Of a DNA stretch of 64,000 bases, positions 1-60,097 are shown piece by piece. How positions within the stretch are numbered: the first letter of the stretch is position 1; every line of letters starts with the position of its first letter. The notes under the pieces are model-generated. The model did not search any database. It worked only from the letters and a program-made list of their open reading frames with translations, and had not been told where the DNA came from. Source of the DNA: a virus; the IMG/VR virus record IMGVR_UViG_3300001796_000002; one strand, given 5' to 3'. A program made the position numbers and the translations under genes.

Positions 1-2
1 CT

Positions 3-611
3 ACAGCCGCAGCTTTAACAAACGCAGCCACAAAAGCCGGTACGGATATATTCAATTCCATCTTATCAAAAAATGGAGTATCTCCATCTTTTTTTTCTAC
101 GTTCAAATTGTTGTCTTTTTTAGATAACAGTACATCACAGTGGAAAAGTAGACTTGCGAAACTTCGTGAGTTTACACCTGAAGGACGCATTTTATTCTAC
201 ATTGATAAGATGCAGAATAACCAACCGTTTCATGGTTCCTGTGTTCAATATGCAGAACTGTTCGGCACTTCGTATGACGGTAAATCCGGTTTGGATGATC
301 GAGGTAAGGTATCGGTTGAACTATTAGAAGTGTTTAACCTACTTGCAGACGAAAAATATTTTCGTGGCAAAGAAACTGCTACGGATGGTCATACTTATCA
401 GCGTGCTAGAATTTTGAATCGCTTGGACATTGCTCCTGACTATGCTGCTGTTGTGCAAAAGAGACAAGCAGCATCGAGGTCTAACCTGGAAATTGCCAAA
501 ATAACCCCGGAAGGTGTTCCCGATAGCAATAGCAACATGATCTATATTCTTGTCGCCCTGGTTGTTATAGGTATCATCGCTTTTATTGTTTCAAAATCAA
601 AAAAGGCATAA
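3..611 (+). CDS. Putative virion membrane protein with C-terminal TM anchor (5' truncated by the window edge)
   Basis: Ends MIYILVALVVIGIIAFIVSKSKKA; full copy at 19442..20071. Confidence 0.75.
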   Translation, partial: TAAALTNAATKAGTDIFNSILSKNGVSPSFFSTFKLLSFLDNSTSQWKSRLAKLREFTPEGRILFYIDKMQNNQPFHGSCVQYAELFGTSYDGKSGLDDRGKVSVELLEVFNLLADEKYFRGKETATDGHTYQRARILNRLDIAPDYAAVVQKRQAASRSNLEIAKITPEGVPDSNSNMIYILVALVVIGIIAFIVSKSKKA

Positions 612-612
612 G

Positions 613-1245
613 ATGAATTTGATTAAAGGACTTGCAACGCTTACTGATCTGCTGCGCAATGAATACATTAGTTTGTTCAACAGAGCGCAAGTAAAGCCTA
701 CGAGTATTTCAAAGGTAGAAACGGCTTACAGACAACTTGTATCCAATAAAGCACGCTATGAAGCTGTTGCCAATGCTTTTAAACTGCCTGGTGTACCCTG
801 GTATCTTATTGGTTGTATTCATATGCGTGAATCTTCATTTCGTTTTACCGGTCATCTTCACAATGGTGATCCGCTTACAGCGAAGACAAAAAATGTTCCA
901 TCAGGTAGACCATTGAACAGTCCTAAAGCAGGTATTGGTAAGCCATATACCTGGGAAGAATCTGCAATTGATGCTATTAGTTTAAAGTTATCCGGATCAC
1001 CTTCATGGTACAATTATAAAAATGATAAAAGCACCGCAAGCCTGTTGAATAAATTAGAGGCTTTCAACGGTGCCGGTTATCGTAATAAAAATATTCCTTC
1101 CCCTTATCTGTGGGCAGATAGTACCATTCAAGTGCCTGGAAAGTTTGTAGCAGATGGACAATTTAATCCGTCTGTAGTTGATCAGCAGTTAGGAGCCGGT
1201 ACGCTACTTAAATACTTCCTAGAACAGGAAGCAAAAAAAAAATAG
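613..1245 (+). CDS. Lysozyme-family peptidoglycan hydrolase (COG5526-like)
   Basis: Motifs IHMRES, HLHNGDPL, WEESAIDA, LEAFNGAGY, SPYLWA, GKFVADG. ATG 613 follows the upstream TAA at 609-611. A -1 frame TM extension runs to 1328. Confidence 0.8.
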   Translation: MNLIKGLATLTDLLRNEYISLFNRAQVKPTSISKVETAYRQLVSNKARYEAVANAFKLPGVPWYLIGCIHMRESSFRFTGHLHNGDPLTAKTKNVPSGRPLNSPKAGIGKPYTWEESAIDAISLKLSGSPSWYNYKNDKSTASLLNKLEAFNGAGYRNKNIPSPYLWADSTIQVPGKFVADGQFNPSVVDQQLGAGTLLKYFLEQEAKKK

Positions 1246-1327
1246 CAGCCCCGTGGCTTGGCTTCTTAATTATGGCTATGCTGTTTCTGATCGTGTTTCT
1301 TTTTTTATCACGGGTCAATAAAAAGTA

Positions 1328-1717
1328 ATGGCAGATGTACATCAAATATTCAACGACACCACAAAAGACCTGCTGTTTGCAATCCTGACAGCATTAGGAG
1401 GCTCTATGATTGACGTTAAAGGAATTTATCATGATTCGAGAGATGACCTCTTATACGCGATACTAGAGCGTTTGGACGGTACCGCAGGACTGGTAAAAAA
1501 GGTTGCTGTATTTACAGTGATTTCTAATATTGAAAACCGGTTTGTTTCAAACTACCAAAATATTGTAGGTGCTAACGGTGTACTGATTAATATCGGTAGC
1601 CAATTTGTTGATACCTCTATAACAGACAACCGTTACGCTTTACCTAACCTGGAAACCGGTGATATTGATTTCCCGCCCTTGTATCAAGGTGAACAAGTAA
1701 TCATTTTAAAATACTGA
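1328..1717 (+). CDS. Hypothetical structural protein (possible spike base/penton)
   Basis: 129 aa directly upstream of the spike gene, with duplicated DLL(F/Y)AIL helices and a beta-rich C-terminus. Confidence 0.6.
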   Translation: MADVHQIFNDTTKDLLFAILTALGGSMIDVKGIYHDSRDDLLYAILERLDGTAGLVKKVAVFTVISNIENRFVSNYQNIVGANGVLINIGSQFVDTSITDNRYALPNLETGDIDFPPLYQGEQVIILKY

Positions 1718-1719
1718 TC

Positions 1720-4700
1720 ATGAAAAGAATTTTGTTGATCCTAACCATGGCTATCAACGCATTTTTTTGCGTTATGGTCCATGGACAAACTGTACCTACT
1801 GAGCAACCGCAACGTGTACAGCATCCATACTACCAGTATGATGGATTTATTGAAGCAAAAAAAGGGATTTTGTTACCACGTAGGATAGCAAACTTTACAC
1901 CTAAATCACCGGTGCTTATTTATGATACGGTGTCGGGAAAAGTGTCTGTTTACTTTGGTGGGTGGAAGTCATTCCAGAATGTGGCATATACATCGGACTA
2001 CAACGATCTTATCAACCGTCCTGATCTTACTCAGTATGTTCCTACGAGTAGAACAATCAACGGTTATTCACTAACAAGCAATATCACCATAAACAAAGTG
2101 GATATTGGCTTAGGTAATGTTCAGAATGTTGATGTAACAAATGCAGGTAACATTACATCAGGCACTTTGTCCGATGCTAGGCTATCAGCCAATGTTACAT
2201 TACAAGGGAATACATTCAACGGTGCAAATCAGTTGTTACAATTGGATGCCGGTGGTAAGGTCGCTTACGCTAACTTACCGGCTTCACTGATGATCTATAA
2301 GGGTGTTTGGGATGCTTCAACAAATACACCAACGCTTGCAGATGGATCAGGAGTGAATGGATGGGTGTATCGTGTGCATCCGGGGGGTACTGTAAATTTT
2401 GGTTCCGGTAACATCACATTTTTATCAGGGGACTATGTTATTTATAATGGATCAGTTTGGCAGAAAAGTGCCGGTGGTGATGCTGTAACATCTGTCAATG
2501 GTCAACAAGGTGTAGTTGTGTTAACTACTGCAAATATTGCGGAAGGTGGAACAAACTACTACTATACAAACACACGGGTACAAACATTTGGTGATACTAG
2601 GTATAGTCTGCTCAATCATGAACACGTCTATTCTGATATTGCTAATCTCAGCAGTTACACGGGTTTTGATGTTAGATACAAACCTATCAGTTATGTTCCT
2701 GCATGGTCTGAAATCACAGGTAAGCCATCATTTGCGACAGTAGCAATAAGTGGATCTTATACTGATTTAAGCGGAACGCCCACACTTGGTTCATTATCTG
2801 CACTCAGTAGTATTGGCAACACATATATCACAGATGTAGCCTGGTCAAAAGTAACCGGTGCTCCATCTTTTTTAACTACTGAAAATGATCCTGTTTATAC
2901 TGCATCATCATGGTATAGCACTACTAATAATGCAAGCAACTGGAATACAGCTTATGCATGGGGCAACTATGCGAATCGTACACTTACAATCAATGGCACA
3001 ACCTATGATCTTTCAACCAACAGATCGTGGTCTGTTGGAACTGTAACAGGAACAGGTACTTCTGGTAATATACCTCTTTGGAATAATGCTAGTGATATTG
3101 GAAATAGTGTAATGGTACAAAGTGGTGGGGCTATCTATAATTACGGAAGATTTCATGGACATACTGGAAATACTGGAACATCATATAGTAATATGCAGAT
3201 AGAAGCATATAGCTCATCAGGCGCTACTGGTGTAGCAGGTTATTCGTTTCATATTGGAGGCTTTACTGCACAATCTTTGTATCTAACAGCAAGTGGAAAT
3301 GTAACTTTAAGCACTGGTTTAAATATACAAGGTGCTGCATCTATCTCTGGTTCAACTTCAATATCTGGTCCTGCAAATATTACTGGAACTATACATGCTA
3401 ATCAGGCGGGTGCAAATATTCGTCTTTACTCGGATGGCACAACAGCAAACGATGGTTTTGTGGGGGTTTCTGGTAGCAATATATACTTAACAAATTGGAA
3501 TGGAACAAGGGGGGTTACTATTGGAGCTGATAACGCAGGTTTTACTCATTCTGTAACAGCTGCAAACTTAGTAAACTCAAAAGGCTTTAGCGCATTAAAT
3601 AAATCATCAAGTTCAGCAAATGATGTTGTTACAGTTTATGCTCCAACAGGTGCAAGTTATTCTGATGATGGTAGTACGGGCGCAATTAAAATAAGACTTC
3701 CATTTAAGGCAGCGAACCCTATGTGGACAATGAAAGTCAGAATTTACAACTATTCTACTCACCAAACTTCTGAATATCTTTTAGGAAACTATTCTTATTC
3801 TGATGGCGGTTATAATTATTCCGCTTCATTTTCTGGTGGTTCTAATGCCTCTCCACTAACTGTAAGATTTGGTAATGATGGAACGTATGATTGCGTATGG
3901 ATTGGTGAAACAAATACTGTTTGGACATATCCAGTAATTAGTGTTGTTGATTACACTGCTGGATTTAGATCAGCTGGTGTATTTCAAGCTAAAGATTGGA
4001 ATATATCCATAGTAACATCTTTTGGCACTGTGGCAGTTGCCACAAGTCCAGCCATTCGATTCTCAGATGTATATGCTTCATCGTTTAATGGTTCTGCATC
4101 AGGTTTAACAGGTACAGCTAGTAGTTTGACTGCTGGTAATAGTAACGGGTTAGGAGGATACTCTGTTAACTTAACTTCAAACGGAACAACTATTTCAAAC
4201 ACATTAATAGGTTTTGAAAGCGGTGTTATAAAACCATTTGCTTCTGGAGCAGTACAATCATTCTTAGGTCTTGGTTCTGCTGCATATACTGCAAGTTCTG
4301 CATATGAAGTACCTCTATCATTTTCAACTGGACTTAACAGAAGTGGCAACACTATCACAAATACGGGTGTAACTTCTTTAACTGGAACATCGAACCAAAT
4401 TGCGGTATCAGCTGCTACAGGATCAGTTACAGTAAGTCTTACCAACAATGTTGTAATACCAGGCACAATCACATCATCTGCTAGTTATGAAAGTTCAGAC
4501 CGTAGGTTAAAACGAGCATTATCCGGAACAAGGTTAATTGGTCAAATTGAATCGCTCCAGGCTCGGTTATATGTAAAGGATGGAAGGGATGAGTACGGAT
4601 ATTACGCTCAGGATGCACTGAAAATTATCCCTACAGCCGTAAAGCAGAGAGCAGATGGCTATTATGATCTGTCCTACACTCAGGTGTTCGTTGTAAAAAT

Positions 4701-4764
4701 TGCATCACTTGAAAAACGTGTAGCGGAACTGGAAACATTACTTAAAAAAATCTACGGAAAATGA
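1720..4764 (+). CDS. Fibre/spike (receptor-binding) protein with N-terminal signal peptide and C-terminal peptidase S74-type intramolecular chaperone
   Basis: 1014 aa, G/S/T/N-rich. Fibre repeats WSEITGKPSF/WSKVTGAPSF and YNDLINRP/YTDLSGTP. C-terminal SDRRLK...GYYAQD...LSY...LEKRVAELE. Confidence 0.85.
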   Translation: MKRILLILTMAINAFFCVMVHGQTVPTEQPQRVQHPYYQYDGFIEAKKGILLPRRIANFTPKSPVLIYDTVSGKVSVYFGGWKSFQNVAYTSDYNDLINRPDLTQYVPTSRTINGYSLTSNITINKVDIGLGNVQNVDVTNAGNITSGTLSDARLSANVTLQGNTFNGANQLLQLDAGGKVAYANLPASLMIYKGVWDASTNTPTLADGSGVNGWVYRVHPGGTVNFGSGNITFLSGDYVIYNGSVWQKSAGGDAVTSVNGQQGVVVLTTANIAEGGTNYYYTNTRVQTFGDTRYSLLNHEHVYSDIANLSSYTGFDVRYKPISYVPAWSEITGKPSFATVAISGSYTDLSGTPTLGSLSALSSIGNTYITDVAWSKVTGAPSFLTTENDPVYTASSWYSTTNNASNWNTAYAWGNYANRTLTINGTTYDLSTNRSWSVGTVTGTGTSGNIPLWNNASDIGNSVMVQSGGAIYNYGRFHGHTGNTGTSYSNMQIEAYSSSGATGVAGYSFHIGGFTAQSLYLTASGNVTLSTGLNIQGAASISGSTSISGPANITGTIHANQAGANIRLYSDGTTANDGFVGVSGSNIYLTNWNGTRGVTIGADNAGFTHSVTAANLVNSKGFSALNKSSSSANDVVTVYAPTGASYSDDGSTGAIKIRLPFKAANPMWTMKVRIYNYSTHQTSEYLLGNYSYSDGGYNYSASFSGGSNASPLTVRFGNDGTYDCVWIGETNTVWTYPVISVVDYTAGFRSAGVFQAKDWNISIVTSFGTVAVATSPAIRFSDVYASSFNGSASGLTGTASSLTAGNSNGLGGYSVNLTSNGTTISNTLIGFESGVIKPFASGAVQSFLGLGSAAYTASSAYEVPLSFSTGLNRSGNTITNTGVTSLTGTSNQIAVSAATGSVTVSLTNNVVIPGTITSSASYESSDRRLKRALSGTRLIGQIESLQARLYVKDGRDEYGYYAQDALKIIPTAVKQRADGYYDLSYTQVFVVKIASLEKRVAELETLLKKIYGK

Positions 4765-6504: not shown

Positions 6505-7575
6505 CTATATCACTGGAAAATTATTGATCAATTGTACACAATCTTCCACCCCTAAACTTTTTAAATATTCATCGAAGACTTTTAAGTCACTATGCCCTTT
6601 CTGCAACTGTAGCTGTTTATGTGGTATGCCACTCATAGCGCTTTCCCTGATACCGGTGTGAACCCATGAATAAAATCCATACCGATTTGAAATATTGAGT
6701 TGGTCTAATATTTTACGATGCCGCTTTGTAAGGTTATTCATAGATAACATTTGTGAACCAGGTTGACCGTGTTTTGAAAATATAAACCATTCAGATGGAT
6801 AGCCCCTGAACTTATTTATAATGTCTTGCATCGGTACCGGTATTGCTTTACGCAAAACATCATCATCCTTTGTTATGCGCACACCGGCTTCAACTCTCAT
6901 TTCATCGAACAGAATATTTTCGATCCTTAACTGTCTGATCTCAGCAGGTCGGAAAAAAAGATAATACTGAAACAATATCGCATCCCATAACTGCGGGTCT
7001 TGTTCGATTACTTTTTCTTTGATGGTTGCAACCTGATTAGGGTGGAAGGGTAGTAGACTCTGAGATTTTAATTTCTTCACCTTTATTCCCTCGAACGGAT
7101 TGTGTGGGTATCTCAGTTGTTTGACAAGGTCTTTAAACAAACAGCCTAAAAATATTTTTGCTTTCAGAATATAATTATTGTGATAATCCTGCTCATACAT
7201 GAATCGAATGTACTCAGCCGGTGATATATCCGGTTTTTTTGCCTTTGCCGGTCTATACCATTCAGAGAACTTTTTCAAGTGAGAAAAATAGCATTGGTAC
7301 GATTTTTTGGCTAGGGATGGTCGTTTGTATTCCAATGCTGCATCGAGATTACCAATCAGGTCGGTTCGTTGCCTGATTTCTACTCTCTGTGGGTCTGTTA
7401 ACTTTTTAATCAATTTGCGAGCTTCCCGCATCCGTTCGGCAACGGTAGAAAGTTTGTTCAACTTTCCATAAACTTTTTGTGGTCTTCCGGCTTTGTCCTG
7501 GTATTGAACAAACCAAGTTTTAGAAATGTCCCGACTTAGCGGATACAGTTTTGGAAAAAAATTTTTTTTATCCAT
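6505..7575 (-). CDS. int: Tyrosine recombinase / phage integrase
   Basis: FFRPAEI (Arg I), YSWVHTG box, GHS and C-terminal Tyr (DEYL); N-terminal arm-binding-like KTWFVQY; likely start ATG 7575. Confidence 0.9.
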   Translation of the reverse strand: MDKKNFFPKLYPLSRDISKTWFVQYQDKAGRPQKVYGKLNKLSTVAERMREARKLIKKLTDPQRVEIRQRTDLIGNLDAALEYKRPSLAKKSYQCYFSHLKKFSEWYRPAKAKKPDISPAEYIRFMYEQDYHNNYILKAKIFLGCLFKDLVKQLRYPHNPFEGIKVKKLKSQSLLPFHPNQVATIKEKVIEQDPQLWDAILFQYYLFFRPAEIRQLRIENILFDEMRVEAGVRITKDDDVLRKAIPVPMQDIINKFRGYPSEWFIFSKHGQPGSQMLSMNNLTKRHRKILDQLNISNRYGFYSWVHTGIRESAMSGIPHKQLQLQKGHSDLKVFDEYLKSLGVEDCVQLINNFPVI

Positions 7576-7672
7576 GATGAAAATTTCTGTGTGAAGCCCC
7601 TGCGAGCTGTACAGATAATCACGGACGGTTAACAATTAGTCTATGCCGTTCTATTCATAGACTTTCGGAAAT

Positions 7673-11750: not shown

Positions 11751-12065
11751 ATGCCAATCAACTACAAGGAATATCATCCAAAGTGGACACTTATCAGAAG
11801 ATTAATTCTGCAACGTGCAGACAATTGTTGTGAAGGTTCTCCAAAATTTCATTTGTGCAGAGCTGCGAATAATCAACCGCATCCTGAAACCGGAAGTAAA
11901 GTGATACTGACTATTGCACACTTGAATCATGATAAGAATGATAACAGGTTTTCTAACCTCAAAGCATTGTGCCAACGATGCCATTTACATCATGATATAG
12001 GGAATCACATATTCAATCGAAAGTATGGTCGGGATACCAAGAGATTAAACGGAAAATTATTTTAA
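11751..12065 (+). CDS. HNH endonuclease
   Basis: CCE...C; LTIAHLNHDKNDNRFSNLKALCQRCHLHHD. Confidence 0.85.
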   Translation: MPINYKEYHPKWTLIRRLILQRADNCCEGSPKFHLCRAANNQPHPETGSKVILTIAHLNHDKNDNRFSNLKALCQRCHLHHDIGNHIFNRKYGRDTKRLNGKLF

Positions 12066-12780
12066 TGAAGAAACCCTATAAAACATATAATGGAGGGAAA
12101 AACGGATCAGGAGTATATCAGCAAATAATTAACCAGATTCCACAGCACAAGATATTCATAAGTGGCTTTTGCGGCAATTGTGGTGTCCTGGCTCATAAGC
12201 TGCCGGCTTCCATGGCCAACATCGCAATCGATCTTGATAATGCAGTAACTCAAAAATGGTCGATAATTCCAGGAATATCTTCCATTAATGCAGATTGTAT
12301 CAGCTTTATTTCAAATTGCCTACAATTCATACAAATTGCTTCCCCCAACCTAATTGATGAAATTGTTATTTACCTCGATCCTCCTTACCTACAGGAAACC
12401 AGAAAAGGAAATAAAGCCTTATATAAACATGAAATGAATGATATCGCATCTCACAAAATATGCTGCTCGATATTATGTGTTGGCCTGTTAAAGTCATACT
12501 AAGCCATTATCCTTGTGATTTATACAATACCTTACTTAAGGATTGGAGAATTCATGATTTTGAAGCTATGACCAGAAACGGAAAAAGAACAGAAAGGCTT
12601 TACATGAACTATCCTGAACCTGATCAGCTACATGACTACAGGTACTTAGGAAAAGATTTTCGTGAAAGAGAACTATACAAAAAGATGCGTTCTAATGTGG
12701 TTAATAAGTTCAAGCGAATGAATATCCTGGAAAGAAACATGATTCTCGAATCATTAAAAGAGAGCTGGCATCATAAGTAA
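12065..12780 (+). pseudogene. Dam-like N6-adenine DNA methyltransferase split by a frameshift near 12455-12462
   Basis: YNGGK, motif-I-like SGFCG, DPPY and YKHEM in ORF 12065..12502. The conserved continuation (LLD...VILSHY...LYNTLLKDW...TERLYMNY) is in the -1 frame ORF 12460..12780. Confidence 0.75.
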
Positions 12781-15016: not shown

Positions 15017-15567
15017 CCAAAAGACTGAATAAATGTTTTCTGTTTATCGGTCGACGTGGTACCGGTAAAACAACTCTTGCGCGAAAGATGGCAAAGGCAA
15101 TGGGTAGAAAGCTGATCATCATTGATACGGATGATCATCCGTCTTATTTAGATATTCCTGTGATCAGCCTTGAAAGACTAAAAACATTCACCGGTGAAGC
15201 GTGCCGCGTGATCGAAAGTGATATTGATCATGTATTCGTAATCTTGAATCAGTACCAAAGTAATGCAGTGGTGATCTGTGAAGATGCCAGTAAGTATATT
15301 ACAGCCAACATCTCAAAAGCTGTTCGATCATTTTTGATCGACATGAGAAAAAGAAATTTTGATGTGATTATCATGTTTCACTTTTTATCTGATGTGCCGC
15401 CATACATCTGCAAGCAATATGATCAGATGGTTCTATTCAAGACTGGTGATAATATCCAGGTAACACAAAACAAGTTTGCAAACTGGCATACCATCGTTAC
15501 TAAGTTGAAGCGTATCCTTAAACACAAAGATTTTAACTACTGTGAGACTATTGCAATTGATGAGTGA
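15013..15567 (+). CDS. FtsK/HerA/A32-like genome-packaging ATPase
   Basis: Stand-alone 184 aa with GRRGTGKTT (Walker A), VVICEDA (Walker B) and DMRKRNFDVIIMFH (Arg-finger/sensor strand); no nuclease domain. Confidence 0.8.
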   Translation: MTKRLNKCFLFIGRRGTGKTTLARKMAKAMGRKLIIIDTDDHPSYLDIPVISLERLKTFTGEACRVIESDIDHVFVILNQYQSNAVVICEDASKYITANISKAVRSFLIDMRKRNFDVIIMFHFLSDVPPYICKQYDQMVLFKTGDNIQVTQNKFANWHTIVTKLKRILKHKDFNYCETIAIDE

Positions 15568-15763
15568 TCGACAGCACATACAACCAAATACACTTGGTGC
15601 CATAGCTAAACGCTATGGAATGGACACTCGTACACTGAAAGGAATGATAAGGTTACATCCTGAATTATTACTAAAAGTTCAACCTTATTTTGACGCAAAA
15701 AAAAATCTGTTACCACCGATCATTGTTGAACTGATTTATACAACACTTGGAACACCTGAGTAG
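15560..15763 (+). CDS. DUF4248-like small HTH protein
   Basis: IAKRYGMDTRTL...PPIIVELIYTTLGTP resembles the DUF4248 pattern (LA..Y...TL...V..I...LGEP). Confidence 0.6.
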   Translation: MSDRQHIQPNTLGAIAKRYGMDTRTLKGMIRLHPELLLKVQPYFDAKKNLLPPIIVELIYTTLGTPE

Positions 15764-16176: not shown

Positions 16177-16827
16177 ATGGAACCAAGACCATACACAGGG
16201 AAAGGTGATGCCTTTCTCGATTTCAAAGGAAACGGTGTAGACTTTGGCAGTGAGTTGAACCTCGACAAAGTTTTCGCGTTCACCATTACCAACGCATCAG
16301 CAAACCCACAGGTTGTATTGCTGAACCCATCTTATTCACCCTCTGTTGTTGCCAGGGTAATTAAAACAGGTGCTATTCCTTATGCGGGCGGCGCAACTGA
16401 TTTGACTGCTTTGGGATCACCTACAAGTATTGAAGAATTTTTGGCGTTCATCAAAGCAAACCCTACAGTGGTAGTAAAAACAATGATTAAGAGTAATAAC
16501 TCTGATCAGTTGGCGAAAGCATTGATTTTCGCAAAAAAATCTCCTTTCAAACTGCCTGATAGTGATCGTATCAATCTGTCATCATTCCTGAGTGAGTTCG
16601 CGTCCAATGATAAATTGGCGACTGTAAAGCGTGAATATCAGTTGGATGATCAAACAGAACTTTCACTCGAGATTCCACCGGCTGTAGGTGCGGTTGCAAC
16701 TGTAACCACAATCACATTCTATTGCGGCGCATCTCTGAACACGGCAAATGCTTTGGCTCAGAAGAAAGCACAGGCAATGTTGAATCCGGAAGTACAGACA
16801 ACAAAAAGTGTAATCGCTGGACGATAG
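16177..16827 (+). CDS. Candidate major capsid protein (jelly-roll type by inference)
   Basis: Soluble, beta-rich 216 aa (VFAFTITN, LSLEIPP, TTITFY), downstream of the ATPase, with its own A-rich leader and a strong terminator directly after. Confidence 0.55.
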   Translation: MEPRPYTGKGDAFLDFKGNGVDFGSELNLDKVFAFTITNASANPQVVLLNPSYSPSVVARVIKTGAIPYAGGATDLTALGSPTSIEEFLAFIKANPTVVVKTMIKSNNSDQLAKALIFAKKSPFKLPDSDRINLSSFLSEFASNDKLATVKREYQLDDQTELSLEIPPAVGAVATVTTITFYCGASLNTANALAQKKAQAMLNPEVQTTKSVIAGR

Positions 16828-18291: not shown

Positions 18292-18747
18292 ATGGCGAAT
18301 ATTCTTAAAGATACGCTTACACCAGGCAAGGGAAACAAAACGGTGAAAACCATCATCGTGATAGCTATTGTAATTGTGGTAATAGTCATTATCTACCAGA
18401 TTTACAAAGCTATCACAGATAGTGGTAAGGCTTTGGGTGATATCATCGGAATGGAAATCATTGAACAAAAAACCGGTATTGTTCCTGCTCGTCAACGTGT
18501 ATGTAAAGAAGTTGCAGAAAACTGCGAGAGTGCTATCACCCGTCTTTGGATTTTCGGTAACAAGTTATGGGTGAATGATGATGAAATCGTAGACCAGTTG
18601 AACAAATTATTGACACCGGCTGAAGCTGCATTGACATCAGTTTTCTTCAAAGAACAATCAGGAGAAACTTTGAAGTCCATCGTAGAGGGTGGCTATTTCG
18701 TAGAAAAAAACCGTAAACGAATTACCCTTCGTCAATACCTGGCATAA
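18292..18747 (+). CDS. Putative virion membrane protein with N-terminal TM
   Basis: KTIIVIAIVIVVIVIIYQIYK; start ATG 18292. Confidence 0.7.
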   Translation: MANILKDTLTPGKGNKTVKTIIVIAIVIVVIVIIYQIYKAITDSGKALGDIIGMEIIEQKTGIVPARQRVCKEVAENCESAITRLWIFGNKLWVNDDEIVDQLNKLLTPAEAALTSVFFKEQSGETLKSIVEGGYFVEKNRKRITLRQYLA

Positions 18748-18748
18748 T

Positions 18749-19243
18749 ATGAGTCAAAAGAAACTGATCATCATCCTTGTAGTTGTAATCGTGATAGCTG
18801 TGATTACATGGTTTGTGTATAAGCATTACCAAAAACAGTTGCATAAGAAATTTCCGATTCGCAAAGGTAGTAAAGGGAAAGGTGTACAGTTCGTTCAGCT
18901 AACATTTGACGCACCATTAACCGGTGTATGGGATGATACGTTTAACGACCACGTGAAAAATCAAACCGGTAACGATTCACTTGAGTGGTCAAAAAAGGAT
19001 CTGTTTGATTACTGGTTTAAAACAGCACTAACATCTGAAACATTTCCACTGGTGCCGGGTCAATCTAGTGGATGGATTATAGCAGTACAGGTGATGCTTG
19101 GAGCAAATAAGTTTACTGATTACTACGATCAGGATACGGTAACTCTGGTAAAAAAAGCCATCGGAAAGGATACAATATCCCTGATGGATTATCTCACAAT
19201 CGGCGAAGATGTTTTTGGCATTGATGCAGCCGATTACAAATAA
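18749..19243 (+). CDS. Membrane protein with two degenerate peptidoglycan-binding-like repeats
   Basis: N-terminal TM; PIRKGSKGKGVQFVQ..TGVWDDTF and PLVPGQSSGWIIAVQ..TDYYDQDT resemble PG_binding_1. Confidence 0.6.
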   Translation: MSQKKLIIILVVVIVIAVITWFVYKHYQKQLHKKFPIRKGSKGKGVQFVQLTFDAPLTGVWDDTFNDHVKNQTGNDSLEWSKKDLFDYWFKTALTSETFPLVPGQSSGWIIAVQVMLGANKFTDYYDQDTVTLVKKAIGKDTISLMDYLTIGEDVFGIDAADYK

Positions 19244-19248
19244 AAGTT

Positions 19249-19416
19249 ATGGCAACCTTTTTTGATCAATTATTTAATCAGGGTAAGTTACCCGATATCA
19301 ATGTTGAGGTTCAACTTGACAATGCAAGTGTTGTACGGCTTGGCGTTATGATCATGATTGTAATGCTGCTCACTATTCTGCTGTATGTGGTGATCCGCAA
19401 AAAGGCAGGTGTATAA
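19249..19416 (+). CDS. Small single-pass membrane protein (55 aa, absent from the ORF track)
   Basis: ...VRLGVMIMIVMLLTILLYVVIRKKAGV. Confidence 0.7.
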   Translation: MATFFDQLFNQGKLPDINVEVQLDNASVVRLGVMIMIVMLLTILLYVVIRKKAGV

Positions 19417-19441
19417 ATCTATTCACCTAAAAATTTATTTC

Positions 19442-20071
19442 ATGGCTATTTTTGCATTACCTACAGCCGCAGCTTTAACAAACGCAGCCACAAAAGCCGG
19501 TACGGATATATTCAATTCCATCTTATCAAAAAATGGAGTATCTCCATCTTTTTTTTCTACGTTCAAATTGTTGTCTTTTTTAGATAACAGTACATCACAG
19601 TGGAAAAGTAGACTTGCGAAACTTCGTGAGTTTACACCTGAAGGACGCATTTTATTCTACATTGATAAGATGCAGAATAACCAACCGTTTCATGGTTCCT
19701 GTGTTCAATATGCAGAACTGTTCGGCACTTCGTATGACGGTAAATCCGGTTTGGATGATCGAGGTAAGGTATCGGTTGAACTATTAGAAGTGTTTAACCT
19801 ACTTGCAGACGAAAAATATTTTCGTGGCAAAGAAACTGCTACGGATGGTCATACTTATCAGCGTGCTAGAATTTTGAATCGCTTGGACATTGCTCCTGAC
19901 TATGCTGCTGTTGTGCAAAAGAGACAAGCAGCATCGAGGTCTAACCTGGAAATTGCCAAAATAACCCCGGAAGGTGTTCCCGATAGCAATAGCAACATGA
20001 TCTATATTCTTGTCGCCCTGGTTGTTATAGGTATCATCGCTTTTATTGTTTCAAAATCAAAAAAGGCATAA
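19442..20071 (+). CDS. Putative virion membrane protein with C-terminal TM anchor
   Basis: ATG 19442 preferred over GTG 19409; C-terminal TM plus KK. Confidence 0.75.
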   Translation: MAIFALPTAAALTNAATKAGTDIFNSILSKNGVSPSFFSTFKLLSFLDNSTSQWKSRLAKLREFTPEGRILFYIDKMQNNQPFHGSCVQYAELFGTSYDGKSGLDDRGKVSVELLEVFNLLADEKYFRGKETATDGHTYQRARILNRLDIAPDYAAVVQKRQAASRSNLEIAKITPEGVPDSNSNMIYILVALVVIGIIAFIVSKSKKA

Positions 20072-20072
20072 G

Positions 20073-20705
20073 ATGAATTTGATTAAAGGACTTGCAACGC
20101 TTACTGATCTGCTGCGCAATGAATACATTAGTTTGTTCAACAGAGCGCAAGTAAAGCCTACGAGTATTTCAAAGGTAGAAACGGCTTACAGACAACTTGT
20201 ATCCAATAAAGCACGCTATGAAGCTGTTGCCAATGCTTTTAAACTGCCTGGTGTACCCTGGTATCTTATTGGTTGTATTCATATGCGTGAATCTTCATTT
20301 CGTTTTACCGGTCATCTTCACAATGGTGATCCGCTTACAGCGAAGACAAAAAATGTTCCATCAGGTAGACCATTGAACAGTCCTAAAGCAGGTATTGGTA
20401 AGCCATATACCTGGGAAGAATCTGCAATTGATGCTATTAGTTTAAAGTTATCCGGATCACCTTCATGGTACAATTATAAAAATGATAAAAGCACCGCAAG
20501 CCTGTTGAATAAATTAGAGGCTTTCAACGGTGCCGGTTATCGTAATAAAAATATTCCTTCCCCTTATCTGTGGGCAGATAGTACCATTCAAGTGCCTGGA
20601 AAGTTTGTAGCAGATGGACAATTTAATCCGTCTGTAGTTGATCAGCAGTTAGGAGCCGGTACGCTACTTAAATACTTCCTAGAACAGGAAGCAAAAAAAA
20701 AATAG
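20073..20705 (+). CDS. Lysozyme-family hydrolase (copy 2)
   Basis: Copy of 613..1245. Confidence 0.8.
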   Translation: MNLIKGLATLTDLLRNEYISLFNRAQVKPTSISKVETAYRQLVSNKARYEAVANAFKLPGVPWYLIGCIHMRESSFRFTGHLHNGDPLTAKTKNVPSGRPLNSPKAGIGKPYTWEESAIDAISLKLSGSPSWYNYKNDKSTASLLNKLEAFNGAGYRNKNIPSPYLWADSTIQVPGKFVADGQFNPSVVDQQLGAGTLLKYFLEQEAKKK

Positions 20706-20787
20706 CAGCCCCGTGGCTTGGCTTCTTAATTATGGCTATGCTGTTTCTGATCGTGTTTCTTTTTTTATCACGGGTCAATAAAAAGTA

Positions 20788-21177
20788 ATGGCAGATGTAC
20801 ATCAAATATTCAACGACACCACAAAAGACCTGCTGTTTGCAATCCTGACAGCATTAGGAGGCTCTATGATTGACGTTAAAGGAATTTATCATGATTCGAG
20901 AGATGACCTCTTATACGCGATACTAGAGCGTTTGGACGGTACCGCAGGACTGGTAAAAAAGGTTGCTGTATTTACAGTGATTTCTAATATTGAAAACCGG
21001 TTTGTTTCAAACTACCAAAATATTGTAGGTGCTAACGGTGTACTGATTAATATCGGTAGCCAATTTGTTGATACCTCTATAACAGACAACCGTTACGCTT
21101 TACCTAACCTGGAAACCGGTGATATTGATTTCCCGCCCTTGTATCAAGGTGAACAAGTAATCATTTTAAAATACTGA
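20788..21177 (+). CDS. Hypothetical structural protein (copy 2)
   Basis: Copy of 1328..1717. Confidence 0.6.
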   Translation: MADVHQIFNDTTKDLLFAILTALGGSMIDVKGIYHDSRDDLLYAILERLDGTAGLVKKVAVFTVISNIENRFVSNYQNIVGANGVLINIGSQFVDTSITDNRYALPNLETGDIDFPPLYQGEQVIILKY

Positions 21178-21179
21178 TC

Positions 21180-24100
21180 ATGAAAAGAATTTTGTTGATC
21201 CTAACCATGGCTATCAACGCATTTTTTTGCGTTATGGTCCATGGACAAACTGTACCTACTGAGCAACCGCAACGTGTACAGCATCCATACTACCAGTATG
21301 ATGGATTTATTGAAGCAAAAAAAGGGATTTTGTTACCACGTAGGATAGCAAACTTTACACCTAAATCACCGGTGCTTATTTATGATACGGTGTCGGGAAA
21401 AGTGTCTGTTTACTTTGGTGGGTGGAAGTCATTCCAGAATGTGGCATATACATCGGACTACAACGATCTTATCAACCGTCCTGATCTTACTCAGTATGTT
21501 CCTACGAGTAGAACAATCAACGGTTATTCACTAACAAGCAATATCACCATAAACAAAGTGGATATTGGCTTAGGTAATGTTCAGAATGTTGATGTAACAA
21601 ATGCAGGTAACATTACATCAGGCACTTTGTCCGATGCTAGGCTATCAGCCAATGTTACATTACAAGGGAATACATTCAACGGTGCAAATCAGTTGTTACA
21701 ATTGGATGCCGGTGGTAAGGTCGCTTACGCTAACTTACCGGCTTCACTGATGATCTATAAGGGTGTTTGGGATGCTTCAACAAATACACCAACGCTTGCA
21801 GATGGATCAGGAGTGAATGGATGGGTGTATCGTGTGCATCCGGGGGGTACTGTAAATTTTGGTTCCGGTAACATCACATTTTTATCAGGGGACTATGTTA
21901 TTTATAATGGATCAGTTTGGCAGAAAAGTGCCGGTGGTGATGCTGTAACATCTGTCAATGGTCAACAAGGTGTAGTTGTGTTAACTACTGCAAATATTGC
22001 GGAAGGTGGAACAAACTACTACTATACAAACACACGGGTACAAACATTTGGTGATACTAGGTATAGTCTGCTCAATCATGAACACGTCTATTCTGATATT
22101 GCTAATCTCAGCAGTTACACGGGTTTTGATGTTAGATACAAACCTATCAGTTATGTTCCTGCATGGTCTGAAATCACAGGTAAGCCATCATTTGCGACAG
22201 TAGCAATAAGTGGATCTTATACTGATTTAAGCGGAACGCCCACACTTGGTTCATTATCTGCACTCAGTAGTATTGGCAACACATATATCACAGATGTAGC
22301 CTGGTCAAAAGTAACCGGTGCTCCATCTTTTTTAACTACTGAAAATGATCCTGTTTATACTGCATCATCATGGTATAGCACTACTAATAATGCAAGCAAC
22401 TGGAATACAGCTTATGCATGGGGCAACTATGCGAATCGTACACTTACAATCAATGGCACAACCTATGATCTTTCAACCAACAGATCGTGGTCTGTTGGAA
22501 CTGTAACAGGAACAGGTACTTCTGGTAATATACCTCTTTGGAATAATGCTAGTGATATTGGAAATAGTGTAATGGTACAAAGTGGTGGGGCTATCTATAA
22601 TTACGGAAGATTTCATGGACATACTGGAAATACTGGAACATCATATAGTAATATGCAGATAGAAGCATATAGCTCATCAGGCGCTACTGGTGTAGCAGGT
22701 TATTCGTTTCATATTGGAGGCTTTACTGCACAATCTTTGTATCTAACAGCAAGTGGAAATGTAACTTTAAGCACTGGTTTAAATATACAAGGTGCTGCAT
22801 CTATCTCTGGTTCAACTTCAATATCTGGTCCTGCAAATATTACTGGAACTATACATGCTAATCAGGCGGGTGCAAATATTCGTCTTTACTCGGATGGCAC
22901 AACAGCAAACGATGGTTTTGTGGGGGTTTCTGGTAGCAATATATACTTAACAAATTGGAATGGAACAAGGGGGGTTACTATTGGAGCTGATAACGCAGGT
23001 TTTACTCATTCTGTAACAGCTGCAAACTTAGTAAACTCAAAAGGCTTTAGCGCATTAAATAAATCATCAAGTTCAGCAAATGATGTTGTTACAGTTTATG
23101 CTCCAACAGGTGCAAGTTATTCTGATGATGGTAGTACGGGCGCAATTAAAATAAGACTTCCATTTAAGGCAGCGAACCCTATGTGGACAATGAAAGTCAG
23201 AATTTACAACTATTCTACTCACCAAACTTCTGAATATCTTTTAGGAAACTATTCTTATTCTGATGGCGGTTATAATTATTCCGCTTCATTTTCTGGTGGT
23301 TCTAATGCCTCTCCACTAACTGTAAGATTTGGTAATGATGGAACGTATGATTGCGTATGGATTGGTGAAACAAATACTGTTTGGACATATCCAGTAATTA
23401 GTGTTGTTGATTACACTGCTGGATTTAGATCAGCTGGTGTATTTCAAGCTAAAGATTGGAATATATCCATAGTAACATCTTTTGGCACTGTGGCAGTTGC
23501 CACAAGTCCAGCCATTCGATTCTCAGATGTATATGCTTCATCGTTTAATGGTTCTGCATCAGGTTTAACAGGTACAGCTAGTAGTTTGACTGCTGGTAAT
23601 AGTAACGGGTTAGGAGGATACTCTGTTAACTTAACTTCAAACGGAACAACTATTTCAAACACATTAATAGGTTTTGAAAGCGGTGTTATAAAACCATTTG
23701 CTTCTGGAGCAGTACAATCATTCTTAGGTCTTGGTTCTGCTGCATATACTGCAAGTTCTGCATATGAAGTACCTCTATCATTTTCAACTGGACTTAACAG
23801 AAGTGGCAACACTATCACAAATACGGGTGTAACTTCTTTAACTGGAACATCGAACCAAATTGCGGTATCAGCTGCTACAGGATCAGTTACAGTAAGTCTT
23901 ACCAACAATGTTGTAATACCAGGCACAATCACATCATCTGCTAGTTATGAAAGTTCAGACCGTAGGTTAAAACGAGCATTATCCGGAACAAGGTTAATTG
24001 GTCAAATTGAATCGCTCCAGGCTCGGTTATATGTAAAGGATGGAAGGGATGAGTACGGATATTACGCTCAGGATGCACTGAAAATTATCCCTACAGCCGT

Positions 24101-24224
24101 AAAGCAGAGAGCAGATGGCTATTATGATCTGTCCTACACTCAGGTGTTCGTTGTAAAAATTGCATCACTTGAAAAACGTGTAGCGGAACTGGAAACATTA
24201 CTTAAAAAAATCTACGGAAAATGA
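21180..24224 (+). CDS. Fibre/spike protein with S74-type chaperone (copy 2)
   Basis: Copy of 1720..4764. Confidence 0.85.
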   Translation: MKRILLILTMAINAFFCVMVHGQTVPTEQPQRVQHPYYQYDGFIEAKKGILLPRRIANFTPKSPVLIYDTVSGKVSVYFGGWKSFQNVAYTSDYNDLINRPDLTQYVPTSRTINGYSLTSNITINKVDIGLGNVQNVDVTNAGNITSGTLSDARLSANVTLQGNTFNGANQLLQLDAGGKVAYANLPASLMIYKGVWDASTNTPTLADGSGVNGWVYRVHPGGTVNFGSGNITFLSGDYVIYNGSVWQKSAGGDAVTSVNGQQGVVVLTTANIAEGGTNYYYTNTRVQTFGDTRYSLLNHEHVYSDIANLSSYTGFDVRYKPISYVPAWSEITGKPSFATVAISGSYTDLSGTPTLGSLSALSSIGNTYITDVAWSKVTGAPSFLTTENDPVYTASSWYSTTNNASNWNTAYAWGNYANRTLTINGTTYDLSTNRSWSVGTVTGTGTSGNIPLWNNASDIGNSVMVQSGGAIYNYGRFHGHTGNTGTSYSNMQIEAYSSSGATGVAGYSFHIGGFTAQSLYLTASGNVTLSTGLNIQGAASISGSTSISGPANITGTIHANQAGANIRLYSDGTTANDGFVGVSGSNIYLTNWNGTRGVTIGADNAGFTHSVTAANLVNSKGFSALNKSSSSANDVVTVYAPTGASYSDDGSTGAIKIRLPFKAANPMWTMKVRIYNYSTHQTSEYLLGNYSYSDGGYNYSASFSGGSNASPLTVRFGNDGTYDCVWIGETNTVWTYPVISVVDYTAGFRSAGVFQAKDWNISIVTSFGTVAVATSPAIRFSDVYASSFNGSASGLTGTASSLTAGNSNGLGGYSVNLTSNGTTISNTLIGFESGVIKPFASGAVQSFLGLGSAAYTASSAYEVPLSFSTGLNRSGNTITNTGVTSLTGTSNQIAVSAATGSVTVSLTNNVVIPGTITSSASYESSDRRLKRALSGTRLIGQIESLQARLYVKDGRDEYGYYAQDALKIIPTAVKQRADGYYDLSYTQVFVVKIASLEKRVAELETLLKKIYGK

Positions 24225-24895
24225 AAAAGCTAATCACGATCTGTGCGCTGATCCTGATCACTGCACTATGTTCATTCACCACTCACTTTTTCTCCTGGGC
24301 ATCACTTGCAAGCAATCAACATATTTCGCTGAATAACTTGAAGGATGCAGTAGACAATGGCGTATTCAACTTAAAAAATGCGATACCTGCCGGCACGAAG
24401 CTGATTACAAAAAATGATGCAGTGTACTACGTGTACCTGAATGAATCCTATTCCCCATATGCAGGTAAAGCAAGCAATCAGCATGTAACAAAATCTGATC
24501 TGCAAGCAAATACAACTTATACACTTCATGTCTACGGTGTACCTGGTGTTGGTTGTCAAGATGCTGTATTATGGCTAGTGGCTAACACTACCGTTCCATG
24601 CGATGCATCATTACAGTTTGATTGGTGTGCAGATAATGGTTCAACAGGTACACATACACTTACGATCCCATCCGGACAAACATCTGTAAGCCTTAACGTG
24701 AATACCGGTGATTATGGCGGTACCGGTTGCGTTGGTACGGATGTTCGCATCAAACCCAACAGTTTATCATTTAGCAATACCTGTAGTCCCGATCCACACA
24801 CTTGGCGTGTTACATCGGATACATGGGATAATGGATGTAACTATTCGCTACCGGCAAGTACACAAGTGATCTGTGTAAAAGGTTGCCCTATTTAA
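24221..24895 (+). CDS. Secreted Cys-rich protein (copy 2)
   Basis: Copy of 4761..5435. Confidence 0.7.
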   Translation: MKKLITICALILITALCSFTTHFFSWASLASNQHISLNNLKDAVDNGVFNLKNAIPAGTKLITKNDAVYYVYLNESYSPYAGKASNQHVTKSDLQANTTYTLHVYGVPGVGCQDAVLWLVANTTVPCDASLQFDWCADNGSTGTHTLTIPSGQTSVSLNVNTGDYGGTGCVGTDVRIKPNSLSFSNTCSPDPHTWRVTSDTWDNGCNYSLPASTQVICVKGCPI

Positions 24896-24919
24896 TGTAA
24901 ATTTTAAAACCATCATAAC

Positions 24920-25303
24920 ATGAAAAGAACAATTTTATTGACAGCATTAGCAAGCGTTTCACTGGCCACAATCGCACAAAAAGTAGAGCCTGTAAAATCT
25001 GCACCAGCAACGGCTGTACAGGCTGCAAAAACCAACACAACAGATACTTTGGTGATCGAGAAAGTGAAGTTTATCAAAATCGGTGAAAAGGTATTTTCAG
25101 TTGCAGACCTGGGCAATCCTGGCAACGTTGCACTGATTGTACCCATCGAGTGGATCGCAGAAAATTATGAGTACCTGGATAATTCCAGTGGTGGCTATTC
25201 AAAGAAGCAATTAGAGCAGCTACAGAAGCCATTGGCACCATGGTACCGGTATTATGTTGACTGGCTACAGCAGCAAAGACAACAAGCGAAAAAGCAGGAG
25301 TGA
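24920..25303 (+). CDS. Secreted hypothetical protein (copy 2)
   Basis: Copy of 5460..5843. Confidence 0.7.
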   Translation: MKRTILLTALASVSLATIAQKVEPVKSAPATAVQAAKTNTTDTLVIEKVKFIKIGEKVFSVADLGNPGNVALIVPIEWIAENYEYLDNSSGGYSKKQLEQLQKPLAPWYRYYVDWLQQQRQQAKKQE

Positions 25304-39532: not shown

Positions 39533-40165
39533 ATGAATTTGATTAAAGGACTTGCAACGCTTACTGATCTGCTGCGCAATGAATACATTAGTTTGTTCAA
39601 CAGAGCGCAAGTAAAGCCTACGAGTATTTCAAAGGTAGAAACGGCTTACAGACAACTTGTATCCAATAAAGCACGCTATGAAGCTGTTGCCAATGCTTTT
39701 AAACTGCCTGGTGTACCCTGGTATCTTATTGGTTGTATTCATATGCGTGAATCTTCATTTCGTTTTACCGGTCATCTTCACAATGGTGATCCGCTTACAG
39801 CGAAGACAAAAAATGTTCCATCAGGTAGACCATTGAACAGTCCTAAAGCAGGTATTGGTAAGCCATATACCTGGGAAGAATCTGCAATTGATGCTATTAG
39901 TTTAAAGTTATCCGGATCACCTTCATGGTACAATTATAAAAATGATAAAAGCACCGCAAGCCTGTTGAATAAATTAGAGGCTTTCAACGGTGCCGGTTAT
40001 CGTAATAAAAATATTCCTTCCCCTTATCTGTGGGCAGATAGTACCATTCAAGTGCCTGGAAAGTTTGTAGCAGATGGACAATTTAATCCGTCTGTAGTTG
40101 ATCAGCAGTTAGGAGCCGGTACGCTACTTAAATACTTCCTAGAACAGGAAGCAAAAAAAAAATAG
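39533..40165 (+). CDS. Lysozyme-family hydrolase (copy 3)
   Basis: Copy of 613..1245. Confidence 0.8.
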   Translation: MNLIKGLATLTDLLRNEYISLFNRAQVKPTSISKVETAYRQLVSNKARYEAVANAFKLPGVPWYLIGCIHMRESSFRFTGHLHNGDPLTAKTKNVPSGRPLNSPKAGIGKPYTWEESAIDAISLKLSGSPSWYNYKNDKSTASLLNKLEAFNGAGYRNKNIPSPYLWADSTIQVPGKFVADGQFNPSVVDQQLGAGTLLKYFLEQEAKKK

Positions 40166-40247
40166 CAGCCCCGTGGCTTGGCTTCTTAATTATGGCTATG
40201 CTGTTTCTGATCGTGTTTCTTTTTTTATCACGGGTCAATAAAAAGTA

Positions 40248-40637
40248 ATGGCAGATGTACATCAAATATTCAACGACACCACAAAAGACCTGCTGTTTGC
40301 AATCCTGACAGCATTAGGAGGCTCTATGATTGACGTTAAAGGAATTTATCATGATTCGAGAGATGACCTCTTATACGCGATACTAGAGCGTTTGGACGGT
40401 ACCGCAGGACTGGTAAAAAAGGTTGCTGTATTTACAGTGATTTCTAATATTGAAAACCGGTTTGTTTCAAACTACCAAAATATTGTAGGTGCTAACGGTG
40501 TACTGATTAATATCGGTAGCCAATTTGTTGATACCTCTATAACAGACAACCGTTACGCTTTACCTAACCTGGAAACCGGTGATATTGATTTCCCGCCCTT
40601 GTATCAAGGTGAACAAGTAATCATTTTAAAATACTGA
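40248..40637 (+). CDS. Hypothetical structural protein (copy 3)
   Basis: Copy of 1328..1717. Confidence 0.6.
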   Translation: MADVHQIFNDTTKDLLFAILTALGGSMIDVKGIYHDSRDDLLYAILERLDGTAGLVKKVAVFTVISNIENRFVSNYQNIVGANGVLINIGSQFVDTSITDNRYALPNLETGDIDFPPLYQGEQVIILKY

Positions 40638-58992: not shown

Positions 58993-59625
58993 ATGAATTT
59001 GATTAAAGGACTTGCAACGCTTACTGATCTGCTGCGCAATGAATACATTAGTTTGTTCAACAGAGCGCAAGTAAAGCCTACGAGTATTTCAAAGGTAGAA
59101 ACGGCTTACAGACAACTTGTATCCAATAAAGCACGCTATGAAGCTGTTGCCAATGCTTTTAAACTGCCTGGTGTACCCTGGTATCTTATTGGTTGTATTC
59201 ATATGCGTGAATCTTCATTTCGTTTTACCGGTCATCTTCACAATGGTGATCCGCTTACAGCGAAGACAAAAAATGTTCCATCAGGTAGACCATTGAACAG
59301 TCCTAAAGCAGGTATTGGTAAGCCATATACCTGGGAAGAATCTGCAATTGATGCTATTAGTTTAAAGTTATCCGGATCACCTTCATGGTACAATTATAAA
59401 AATGATAAAAGCACCGCAAGCCTGTTGAATAAATTAGAGGCTTTCAACGGTGCCGGTTATCGTAATAAAAATATTCCTTCCCCTTATCTGTGGGCAGATA
59501 GTACCATTCAAGTGCCTGGAAAGTTTGTAGCAGATGGACAATTTAATCCGTCTGTAGTTGATCAGCAGTTAGGAGCCGGTACGCTACTTAAATACTTCCT
59601 AGAACAGGAAGCAAAAAAAAAATAG
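58993..59625 (+). CDS. Lysozyme-family hydrolase (copy 4)
   Basis: Copy of 613..1245. Confidence 0.8.
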   Translation: MNLIKGLATLTDLLRNEYISLFNRAQVKPTSISKVETAYRQLVSNKARYEAVANAFKLPGVPWYLIGCIHMRESSFRFTGHLHNGDPLTAKTKNVPSGRPLNSPKAGIGKPYTWEESAIDAISLKLSGSPSWYNYKNDKSTASLLNKLEAFNGAGYRNKNIPSPYLWADSTIQVPGKFVADGQFNPSVVDQQLGAGTLLKYFLEQEAKKK

Positions 59626-59707
59626 CAGCCCCGTGGCTTGGCTTCTTAATTATGGCTATGCTGTTTCTGATCGTGTTTCTTTTTTTATCACGGGTCAATA
59701 AAAAGTA

Positions 59708-60097
59708 ATGGCAGATGTACATCAAATATTCAACGACACCACAAAAGACCTGCTGTTTGCAATCCTGACAGCATTAGGAGGCTCTATGATTGACGTTAAA
59801 GGAATTTATCATGATTCGAGAGATGACCTCTTATACGCGATACTAGAGCGTTTGGACGGTACCGCAGGACTGGTAAAAAAGGTTGCTGTATTTACAGTGA
59901 TTTCTAATATTGAAAACCGGTTTGTTTCAAACTACCAAAATATTGTAGGTGCTAACGGTGTACTGATTAATATCGGTAGCCAATTTGTTGATACCTCTAT
60001 AACAGACAACCGTTACGCTTTACCTAACCTGGAAACCGGTGATATTGATTTCCCGCCCTTGTATCAAGGTGAACAAGTAATCATTTTAAAATACTGA
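59708..60097 (+). CDS. Hypothetical structural protein (copy 4)
   Basis: Copy of 1328..1717. Confidence 0.6.
   Translation: MADVHQIFNDTTKDLLFAILTALGGSMIDVKGIYHDSRDDLLYAILERLDGTAGLVKKVAVFTVISNIENRFVSNYQNIVGANGVLINIGSQFVDTSITDNRYALPNLETGDIDFPPLYQGEQVIILKY

Follow-up and report, generated by a model that had tools for sequence, protein, structure and literature searches.

Slippage on a conserved run of ten A's probably adds an occasional membrane anchor to the lysozyme-fold enzyme of a Bacteroidota virus

The window analyzed here is the whole 64,000-nucleotide (nt) stretch of virus record IMGVR_UViG_3300001796_000002 from IMG/VR. It is built of a 19,460-bp unit that recurs 3.29 times without a single mismatch at that period; because the repetition is exact, we treat the window as one circular or concatemeric element and not as 64 kb of unique sequence. 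The source is a small temperate virus of Bacteroidota. Near the start of the window, a gene predicted to encode a lysozyme-fold enzyme of 210 amino acids (aa) ends on a run of ten A's (A10), and past the run the -1 reading frame continues into a short tail with one predicted transmembrane (TM) helix (Table 1). The open reading frame (ORF) has identical copies at 20073-20705, 39533-40165, and 58993-59625, and the whole feature, ORF plus tail, recurs at 20073-20788, 39533-40248, and 58993-59708. Judging from sequence comparison, a slip on the run probably adds the membrane anchor occasionally, so that soluble and anchored enzyme would come from one gene.

The 3' end of the ORF reads GCA AAA AAA AAA TAG, and the 0-frame stop codon (TAG, 1243-1245) directly abuts the run. 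The first-pass annotation of this DNA had placed the end of the ORF on an A10 at 1233-1242, and these coordinates were exact. It had further described a -1 frame that stays open up to 1326-1328, where its TAA stop overlaps the start (ATG) of the next gene, and that fills an 82-nt gap; we confirmed all of this. The gap left by the 0-frame stop is the largest junction in the late-operon stretch, where the other gaps range from -4 to 25 nt, and the -1-frame tail occupies it exactly. In the window, the -1 frame is not open before 1212, and between there and the tail it contains no ATG, GTG, or TTG. The hydropathy of the tail (P0002) reaches a Kyte-Doolittle maximum of 3.08 in a 17-residue window. 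Its likeness to neighboring membrane proteins that end in a helix and lysines, also claimed in the first-pass annotation, was borne out: of the seven single-pass membrane proteins encoded in the late module, three have a TM helix at the C-terminus with Lys-rich residues after it, and the shifted lysozyme product shares its architecture with the protein encoded immediately upstream.

The A10 at 1233-1242 is the only run of at least ten A's in the 19,460-bp unit. Matches to nine A's number 11, compared with 7.9 expected from shuffles. An A-run by itself is ordinary in this DNA; its conservation in relatives is what exceeds chance. In this genome, 68% of Lys codons are AAA, and the three other KKK tripeptides are all broken by AAG; based on this codon usage, the probability of a pure A-run at such a site is ~0.15 per lineage.

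Table 1. Features at the A10 run and elsewhere in the element, with positions in the 64,000-nt window
Feature	Position	Strand	Remarks
Upstream neighbor	1..611 (complete copy 19442-20071)	+	209 aa; soluble domain, C-terminal TM helix, and basic end, all in frame
Lysozyme-fold gene, 0 frame (P0001)	613..1245	+	210 codons plus stop; predicted major, soluble product
A10 slippery run	1233..1242	+	Wobble A of GCA plus three AAA Lys codons
-1-frame extension (P0002)	1242..1328	+	28 codons plus TAA; one TM helix, then a basic end
TAATG overlap	1326..1330	+	The TAA that ends the -1-frame tail (1326-1328) shares its last A with the ATG of the next late gene (1328-1717, 129 aa)
Likely receptor-binding spike	1720-4764		1,014 aa; N-terminal hydrophobic leader; tail-fiber-like PHROG matches (residues 130-280); C-terminal match to fiber/chaperone-type families (residues 884-1011)
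Tyrosine integrase	6505-7635	-	
Candidate short capsid protein	16177-16827		216-aa late protein; beta-sandwich model
Late-operon stretch	18292-25303		Orphan proteins
Cro/CI-type repressor			Encoded in the 19,460-bp element
VapE-like primase-helicase			Encoded in the 19,460-bp element
Small P-loop ATPase, packaging-type			Late module of the element

We compared the locus with a close clade of 16 loci (51-91% identity), with two further loci at 46-47% identity (L196 and L197), and with 176 remote loci below 47%. A run of ten or eleven A's (A10 or A11) stands at the same place in 16 of the 16 close-clade loci and in both L196 and L197, and a run of nine or more A's near the gene end was found in none of the 176 remote loci. 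In every one of the nearest relatives (51-91%), the protein closes with Ala/Ser-Lys-Lys-Lys and at most four further residues. Because the codon preceding the three AAA codons invariably has A as its last base (GCA, TCA, GAA, or GGA), the run always comprises 10-11 A's.

A TM tail without a start codon, shifted relative to the lysozyme frame, was found in about eleven lineages spanning 47-91% identity. In nine of them the tail lies in the -1 frame: the window, L001 (91%), L004 (80%), L086 (68%, a metagenome-assembled genome of Sediminibacterium), L166 and L199 (both about 65-69%), L167 (62%, with A11), and L192 and L194 (both about 52%). The other two, L191 (58%) and L196 (47%, with A10), carry a +1 tail. 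All relatives with the run retain the out-of-frame TM tail, with the single exception of L197. Although several of the tails cannot be aligned to one another, all are open frames that encode a hydrophobic helix and then a basic end. When the segment of each lineage was shuffled with dinucleotide composition preserved, 0.7-10.7% of the shuffles yielded an open frame with a comparable hydrophobic stretch. No ATG, GTG, or TTG precedes the tail in its own frame in any of nine lineages; the first such codon is at tail codon 6-15 in eight of the nine and at codon 3 in L166, and a start there would cut the helix. An independent start for the tail was therefore rejected, as no lineage has one upstream and none inside the tail is conserved. 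The tail stop in relatives falls between about 14 nt before and 7 nt after the start of the next gene, mostly as TAATG, TGATG, or ATGA overlaps, and the gene order around the locus is the same as in the window. The first-pass annotation had suggested a comparison of homologs with respect to A10 versus A11 and to a conserved TM tail; that comparison found both the run and the shifted tail kept across about eleven diverged lineages.

AlphaFold2 modeled the 210-aa protein (P0001) with a mean predicted local distance difference test score (pLDDT) of 96.8 and a predicted template modeling score (pTM) of 0.92, built on 69 homologs. In an exhaustive structural search with this model, the matches included MltF (Z 7.5; root-mean-square deviation 4.2, 131 residues aligned), MltE (Z 6.4), and a GH73 glucosaminidase (Z 6.3), as well as AtlA, Slt70, the phi29 tail enzyme, and goose-type lysozyme. 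Enzymes of the lysozyme superfamily made up 42 of the 43 top matches, with Z values of 3.7-7.5. Foldseek against the PDB returned only weak rows (E 0.23 or weaker), and by sequence there was no family match in Pfam, PHROGs, NCBIfam, or the PDB. The "lysozyme" of the first-pass annotation thus stands at the level of the fold, based on the model and on structural matches to lytic transglycosylases and glucosaminidases (Z 5-7.5), and does not stand as a sequence family, given the lack of a Pfam, PHROG, or NCBIfam match. As the Z values are middling, P0001 shares the lysozyme fold without a specific glycoside hydrolase family being implied. The residue Glu73, which is invariant across the 69 homologs and sits at the end of helix 63-74 in the model, is the obvious candidate for the catalytic acid. 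We found no signal peptide and no N-terminal TM or hydrophobic segment in P0001.

The relatives of P0001, which JGI labels "lysozyme family protein," fall into 3,440 clusters at 50% identity (E 0.001 or better); this is a large family without a curated model. In about 7-10% of its remote members, a C-terminal TM anchor is encoded without any change of frame, so anchored enzymes do occur naturally within the family. Such in-frame anchors occur in P0053, P0080, and P0122 and at loci L017, L021, L043, L065, and L068, and in several viral contigs of these remote anchored members the helix is followed by a conserved Glu-Gly-Arg-Tyr-x-Pro-Ser motif.

The element that carries the gene has a G+C content of 38.7%. 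No cultured relative was found in the INPHARED phage collection, where the sole match was a Bradyrhizobium phage at 37% identity. Pfam and PHROG scans of the element recognized no tail-structure gene besides the fiber-like spike. The model of the 216-aa late protein is partly confident (pLDDT 75.5), and among its best matches, at Z 5-6.8, are viral jelly-roll capsid and penton proteins; all of its 15 homologs come from within the same virus lineage. These matches are suggestive of a jelly-roll capsid protein, albeit not decisive. The seven TM proteins, the P-loop ATPase, and the jelly-roll-like protein are suggestive of an internal membrane, and the virus would be tail-less and apparently membrane-containing.

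We propose that the conserved A10 on which the lysozyme-fold gene ends serves as a programmed recoding site, where most likely RNA polymerase slips and thereby gives rise to both a soluble and an anchored enzyme; we would put the probability of this at roughly two in three. Most transcripts would keep A10 and direct synthesis of the 210-aa soluble enzyme. In a minority of transcripts, the host RNA polymerase would slip on the ten-base rA:dT hybrid and add one A. Ordinary translation of the resulting A11 mRNA would enter the -1 frame and append the 28-residue TM tail, giving a minor, tail-anchored enzyme of 238 aa, the stop codon of which would be coupled to the ATG of the next gene. The ribosome may also play a part, through a -1 slip or by sliding on A AAA AAA. 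The soluble form would serve lysis or be carried free, whereas the anchored form would sit in the virus membrane and cut peptidoglycan at entry, in the manner of P7 and P15 of PRD1 and P7 of PM2. The slippage itself, its rate, the role of the soluble form, and the virion-membrane role of the anchored form are what we infer here. The first-pass annotation had likewise held that one gene may give a 210-aa soluble form and a 238-aa anchored form through a shift on the A-run, and the comparison, with the run and a startless shifted tail in about eleven lineages, supports this strongly.

Explanations in which the DNA itself carries the change were weighed using the close clade, whose nine clusters at 90% identity contain 38 distinct protein variants collected from NCBI, JGI, ENA, and Logan assemblies. 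Of these variants, 36 have the short form, two (P0294 and P0297) read the third, non-TM frame, and none has the TM tail in frame; the out-of-frame state is therefore maintained. Homopolymers are error-prone, and in two cases contigs differ by a single A, as might be expected if the true genome had A11 and encoded a plain anchored lysozyme that sequencing or assembly had broken. Against such an error, which the first-pass annotation had named as the alternative, stands the out-of-frame state in every lineage and in dozens of independent NCBI, JGI, ENA, and Logan assemblies, and the run of L167 is already A11 with its tail still in -1. With 36 of 38 variants short and none anchored in frame, we reject a consensus error and regard it as having next to no chance of being correct. 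The two cases are L167 (A11, 1359-1369) and L170 (A10, 3139-3148), which are identical over 965 nt but for one A, and L199 (A10, 816-825) and L198 (A9, 2127-2135), which are identical over 1,300 nt but for one A. In both pairs the sister contigs come from different samples, and the version with the shorter run is annotated as a protein of 237 or 239 aa; run length thus varies at the DNA level or is sometimes under-called. We considered L170 (237 aa) and P0294 (239 aa) as in-frame anchored fusions and rejected them, as their run is one A shorter and the third, non-TM frame is read. The same two pairs are what speaks for a phase switch, in which replication slippage would alter the length of the run and subpopulations would carry either the soluble or the anchored version of the gene. 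However, both variants are one A shorter and lead into the non-TM frame, such one-A deletions may be under-calls of the assembly, and the anchored state was in frame in 0 of 38 variants, where about a third would be expected if the three states were equally likely. The phase variability raised in the first-pass annotation is weakened by these counts, and we consider a DNA-level switch improbable.

If the genome is stably out of frame, the tail could still have nothing to do with the lysozyme, either as the decaying remnant of an anchor once in frame or as a mini-protein made from an internal or non-canonical start, the run then being mere Lys codons or an A-rich leader. Initiation regions in Bacteroidota are A-rich, in L197 the run is present although no shifted TM tail follows it, and the tail bears no clear mark of purifying selection at the codon level. 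These points are countered by the frame being open and hydrophobic even in lineages whose tails cannot be aligned, by the positions of the potential start codons described above, by the lack of a conserved start or re-initiation codon, and by the coupling of the tail stop to the start of the next gene; the chance that the tail is separate seems to us slim. The question is then whether polymerase or ribosome makes the shift. Ribosomal -1 frameshifting or sliding on A AAA AAA would give the same two products from a homogeneous A10 mRNA, aided in the window by the adjacent 0-frame stop. The classic X XXY YYZ heptamer is indeed present, as A AAA AAA in 0-frame phase within GCA AAA AAA AAA; nine lineages need exactly -1; in the window a stop lies directly 3' of the run; and frameshifting and sliding on A-runs are documented (PMC5009743). 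However, in Escherichia coli shifting occurs far less readily on A AAA AAA than on A AAA AAG (PMC5009743), and in relatives the 0-frame stop comes 1 to 26 codons past the run. We found no downstream stimulatory structure: in nine lineages, the 70 nt past the run fold no better than shuffles (z -1.07 to +1.52), a search that did not cover pseudoknots or Shine-Dalgarno-like elements. Nor does the relation of the frames stay constant at -1, as the two +1 tails (L191 and L196) would require the ribosome to shift the other way. Finally, the conserved 10-11 A's, which include the preceding wobble base, exceed what a heptamer needs. We regard ribosomal shifting as the sole source of the two products as unlikely, and several of the same observations favor RNA polymerase. 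The RNA-DNA hybrid measures 9-10 bp, and bacterial polymerase slips efficiently on nine or more A's or T's (PMC5009743); a run of 10-11 A's fits this hybrid while exceeding the 7 nt of the ribosomal X XXY YYZ. The AAA/AAG usage, from which a pure run would be expected in ~15% of lineages, favors RNA polymerase over the ribosome, and so does the absence of a downstream structure, promoter, or terminator: we found no promoter-like or terminator-like site in the 82-nt gap and no Rfam family in the 19.5-kb unit. The coexistence of -1 and +1 layouts fits a pool of transcripts with varied numbers of A's and likewise favors RNA polymerase.

Several observations weigh against polymerase slippage as a source of a virion-anchored enzyme. 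L197 (1202-1864, 46%) keeps A10 and has no TM tail in any frame, so the retention of the run could have a different cause. Sequence change in the tail is rapid, and counts by codon position and of synonymous and non-synonymous changes in four tails of equal length gave no clear synonymous excess. These counts are uninformative because the amino acids of the tail change fast, as do those of TM helices under compositional constraint, and the coding status of the tail therefore rests on its openness, hydrophobicity, and position. Both flanks of the tail helix are basic, so no clear membrane topology is predicted. The jelly-roll matches reach only Z 5-6.8, and the internal membrane of the virion is itself putative. 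To our knowledge, slippage by a Bacteroidota RNA polymerase on A10 has never been measured. As an observation on the same locus, L197 continues in frame past A10 into a 20-residue, moderately hydrophobic, Phe-rich end, and the end of P0019 is similar.

Among known systems, the layout in the window resembles tssM1 of Citrobacter rodentium and tssM of Yersinia pseudotuberculosis, in which ~11 A's precede a premature stop without stimulators in the mRNA, and A's added by the polymerase lead to a short and a C-terminally extended protein, as proposed for the window; for tssM1, both forms and their ratio matter (PMC4256274). In C. rodentium, mass spectrometry of cDNA revealed slippage, with 10-15 A's in transcripts from an A11 template (PMC4256274, Gueguen et al. 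2014), whereas slippage in the window is deduced only from conservation. The two also differ in setting, as tssM1 is a bacterial secretion-system gene whose extension is a large periplasmic domain and the window gene is a viral lysin with a single TM anchor. The dnaX gene of Thermus thermophilus (A9, tau/gamma) is a parallel to the proposed slippage: its homopolymer is of hybrid length, its mRNAs are mixed, and proteins of two lengths are made in a set ratio (PMC5009743). In dnaX, however, the 0 frame encodes the long form and slippage shortens the protein, whereas slippage in the window would extend it. Poly-A slippage is likewise established for mxiE of Shigella (PMC5009743), where spa is another example of a programmed slippage site on a poly-A/T run. 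In the GP gene of Ebola virus (A7), polymerase stuttering switches a viral protein between soluble and TM-anchored forms at about 70:25:5 (PMC5009743). That case involves an RNA-dependent RNA polymerase and the glycoprotein of an animal virus, and the likeness is one of logic and not of homology.

Membrane-associated virion lysins are documented for PRD1 (P7 and P15) and PM2 (P7), and P15 of PRD1 is also a lysis enzyme (PMC5380687). Unlike the window, PRD1 uses two separate genes, with no recoding described in the literature searched, and the window enzyme differs in having no Pfam match. The frameshift in the G/GT-type tail assembly chaperone gene of phage lambda resembles what is proposed for the window, with a conserved phage recoding site, a minor C-terminally extended product, a fixed ratio, and a layout kept despite divergence; it differs in that the ribosome makes a -1 shift on a heptamer, in tailed phages, for another function, and with no long homopolymer. 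Signal-anchor-release (SAR) endolysins resemble the predicted long form, in that a single helix holds a phage lysozyme on the membrane. Their helix, however, is N-terminal, in frame, and exports the enzyme, whereas that of the window is C-terminal, requires a change of frame, and comes with no export signal.

Poly-A slippage that gives a short and an extended protein is already established; on present sequence evidence, the phage lysin is a new gene context for it and a well-supported conserved recoding site. We found no precedent for slippage or frameshifting in a phage lysin or endolysin in the full-text literature searched, and a 2016 review of recoding (PMC5009743) has no mention of lysozyme or endolysin. 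The most economical reading would be that free and membrane-bound enzyme come from one gene in a ratio set by the run. In a bolder and more tentative version, which we find conceivable although we would not rely on it, slippage of the host polymerase on A10 sets a fixed ratio of free to tail-anchored lysin throughout a lineage of uncultured Bacteroidota viruses that lack a tail and contain a membrane, with the anchored copy built into that membrane to act at entry. The enzyme would then be the first lysin of a phage to be controlled by recoding, and the A9, A10, and A11 variants and the -1 and +1 layouts would act as an evolutionary dial.

If the proposed slippage is correct, phage lysins join the short list of genes expressed via poly-A slippage, and a 19.5-kb virus obtains from one gene the free and membrane-bound enzymes for which PRD1 uses separate genes. 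It would also provide a testable handle on how undescribed tail-less Bacteroidota viruses cross the cell wall. Automatic annotation calls a plain 210-aa protein and an 82-nt "intergenic" gap, so that no database record of the lineage shows the predicted anchored isoform. The locus also warns against "correcting" homopolymer "frameshifts" that are conserved among viral metagenome assemblies.

Elsewhere in the element, we considered the A9 at 15697-15705 as a second site and rejected it, as it lies in frame inside a 67-aa ORF (15560-15763) and has no continuation in an alternative frame. This ORF, which holds the second-longest A-run, is followed by a hairpin and a T8 terminator-like site. A gene resembling D12-class adenine methyltransferases seems to be split into overlapping ORFs (12065-12502 and 12460-12780), with the frame change near 12450-12465, just past the DPPY motif. 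There is no long homopolymer at this junction, and the split gene (12065-12780) may be a pseudogene or may contain a second frame change.

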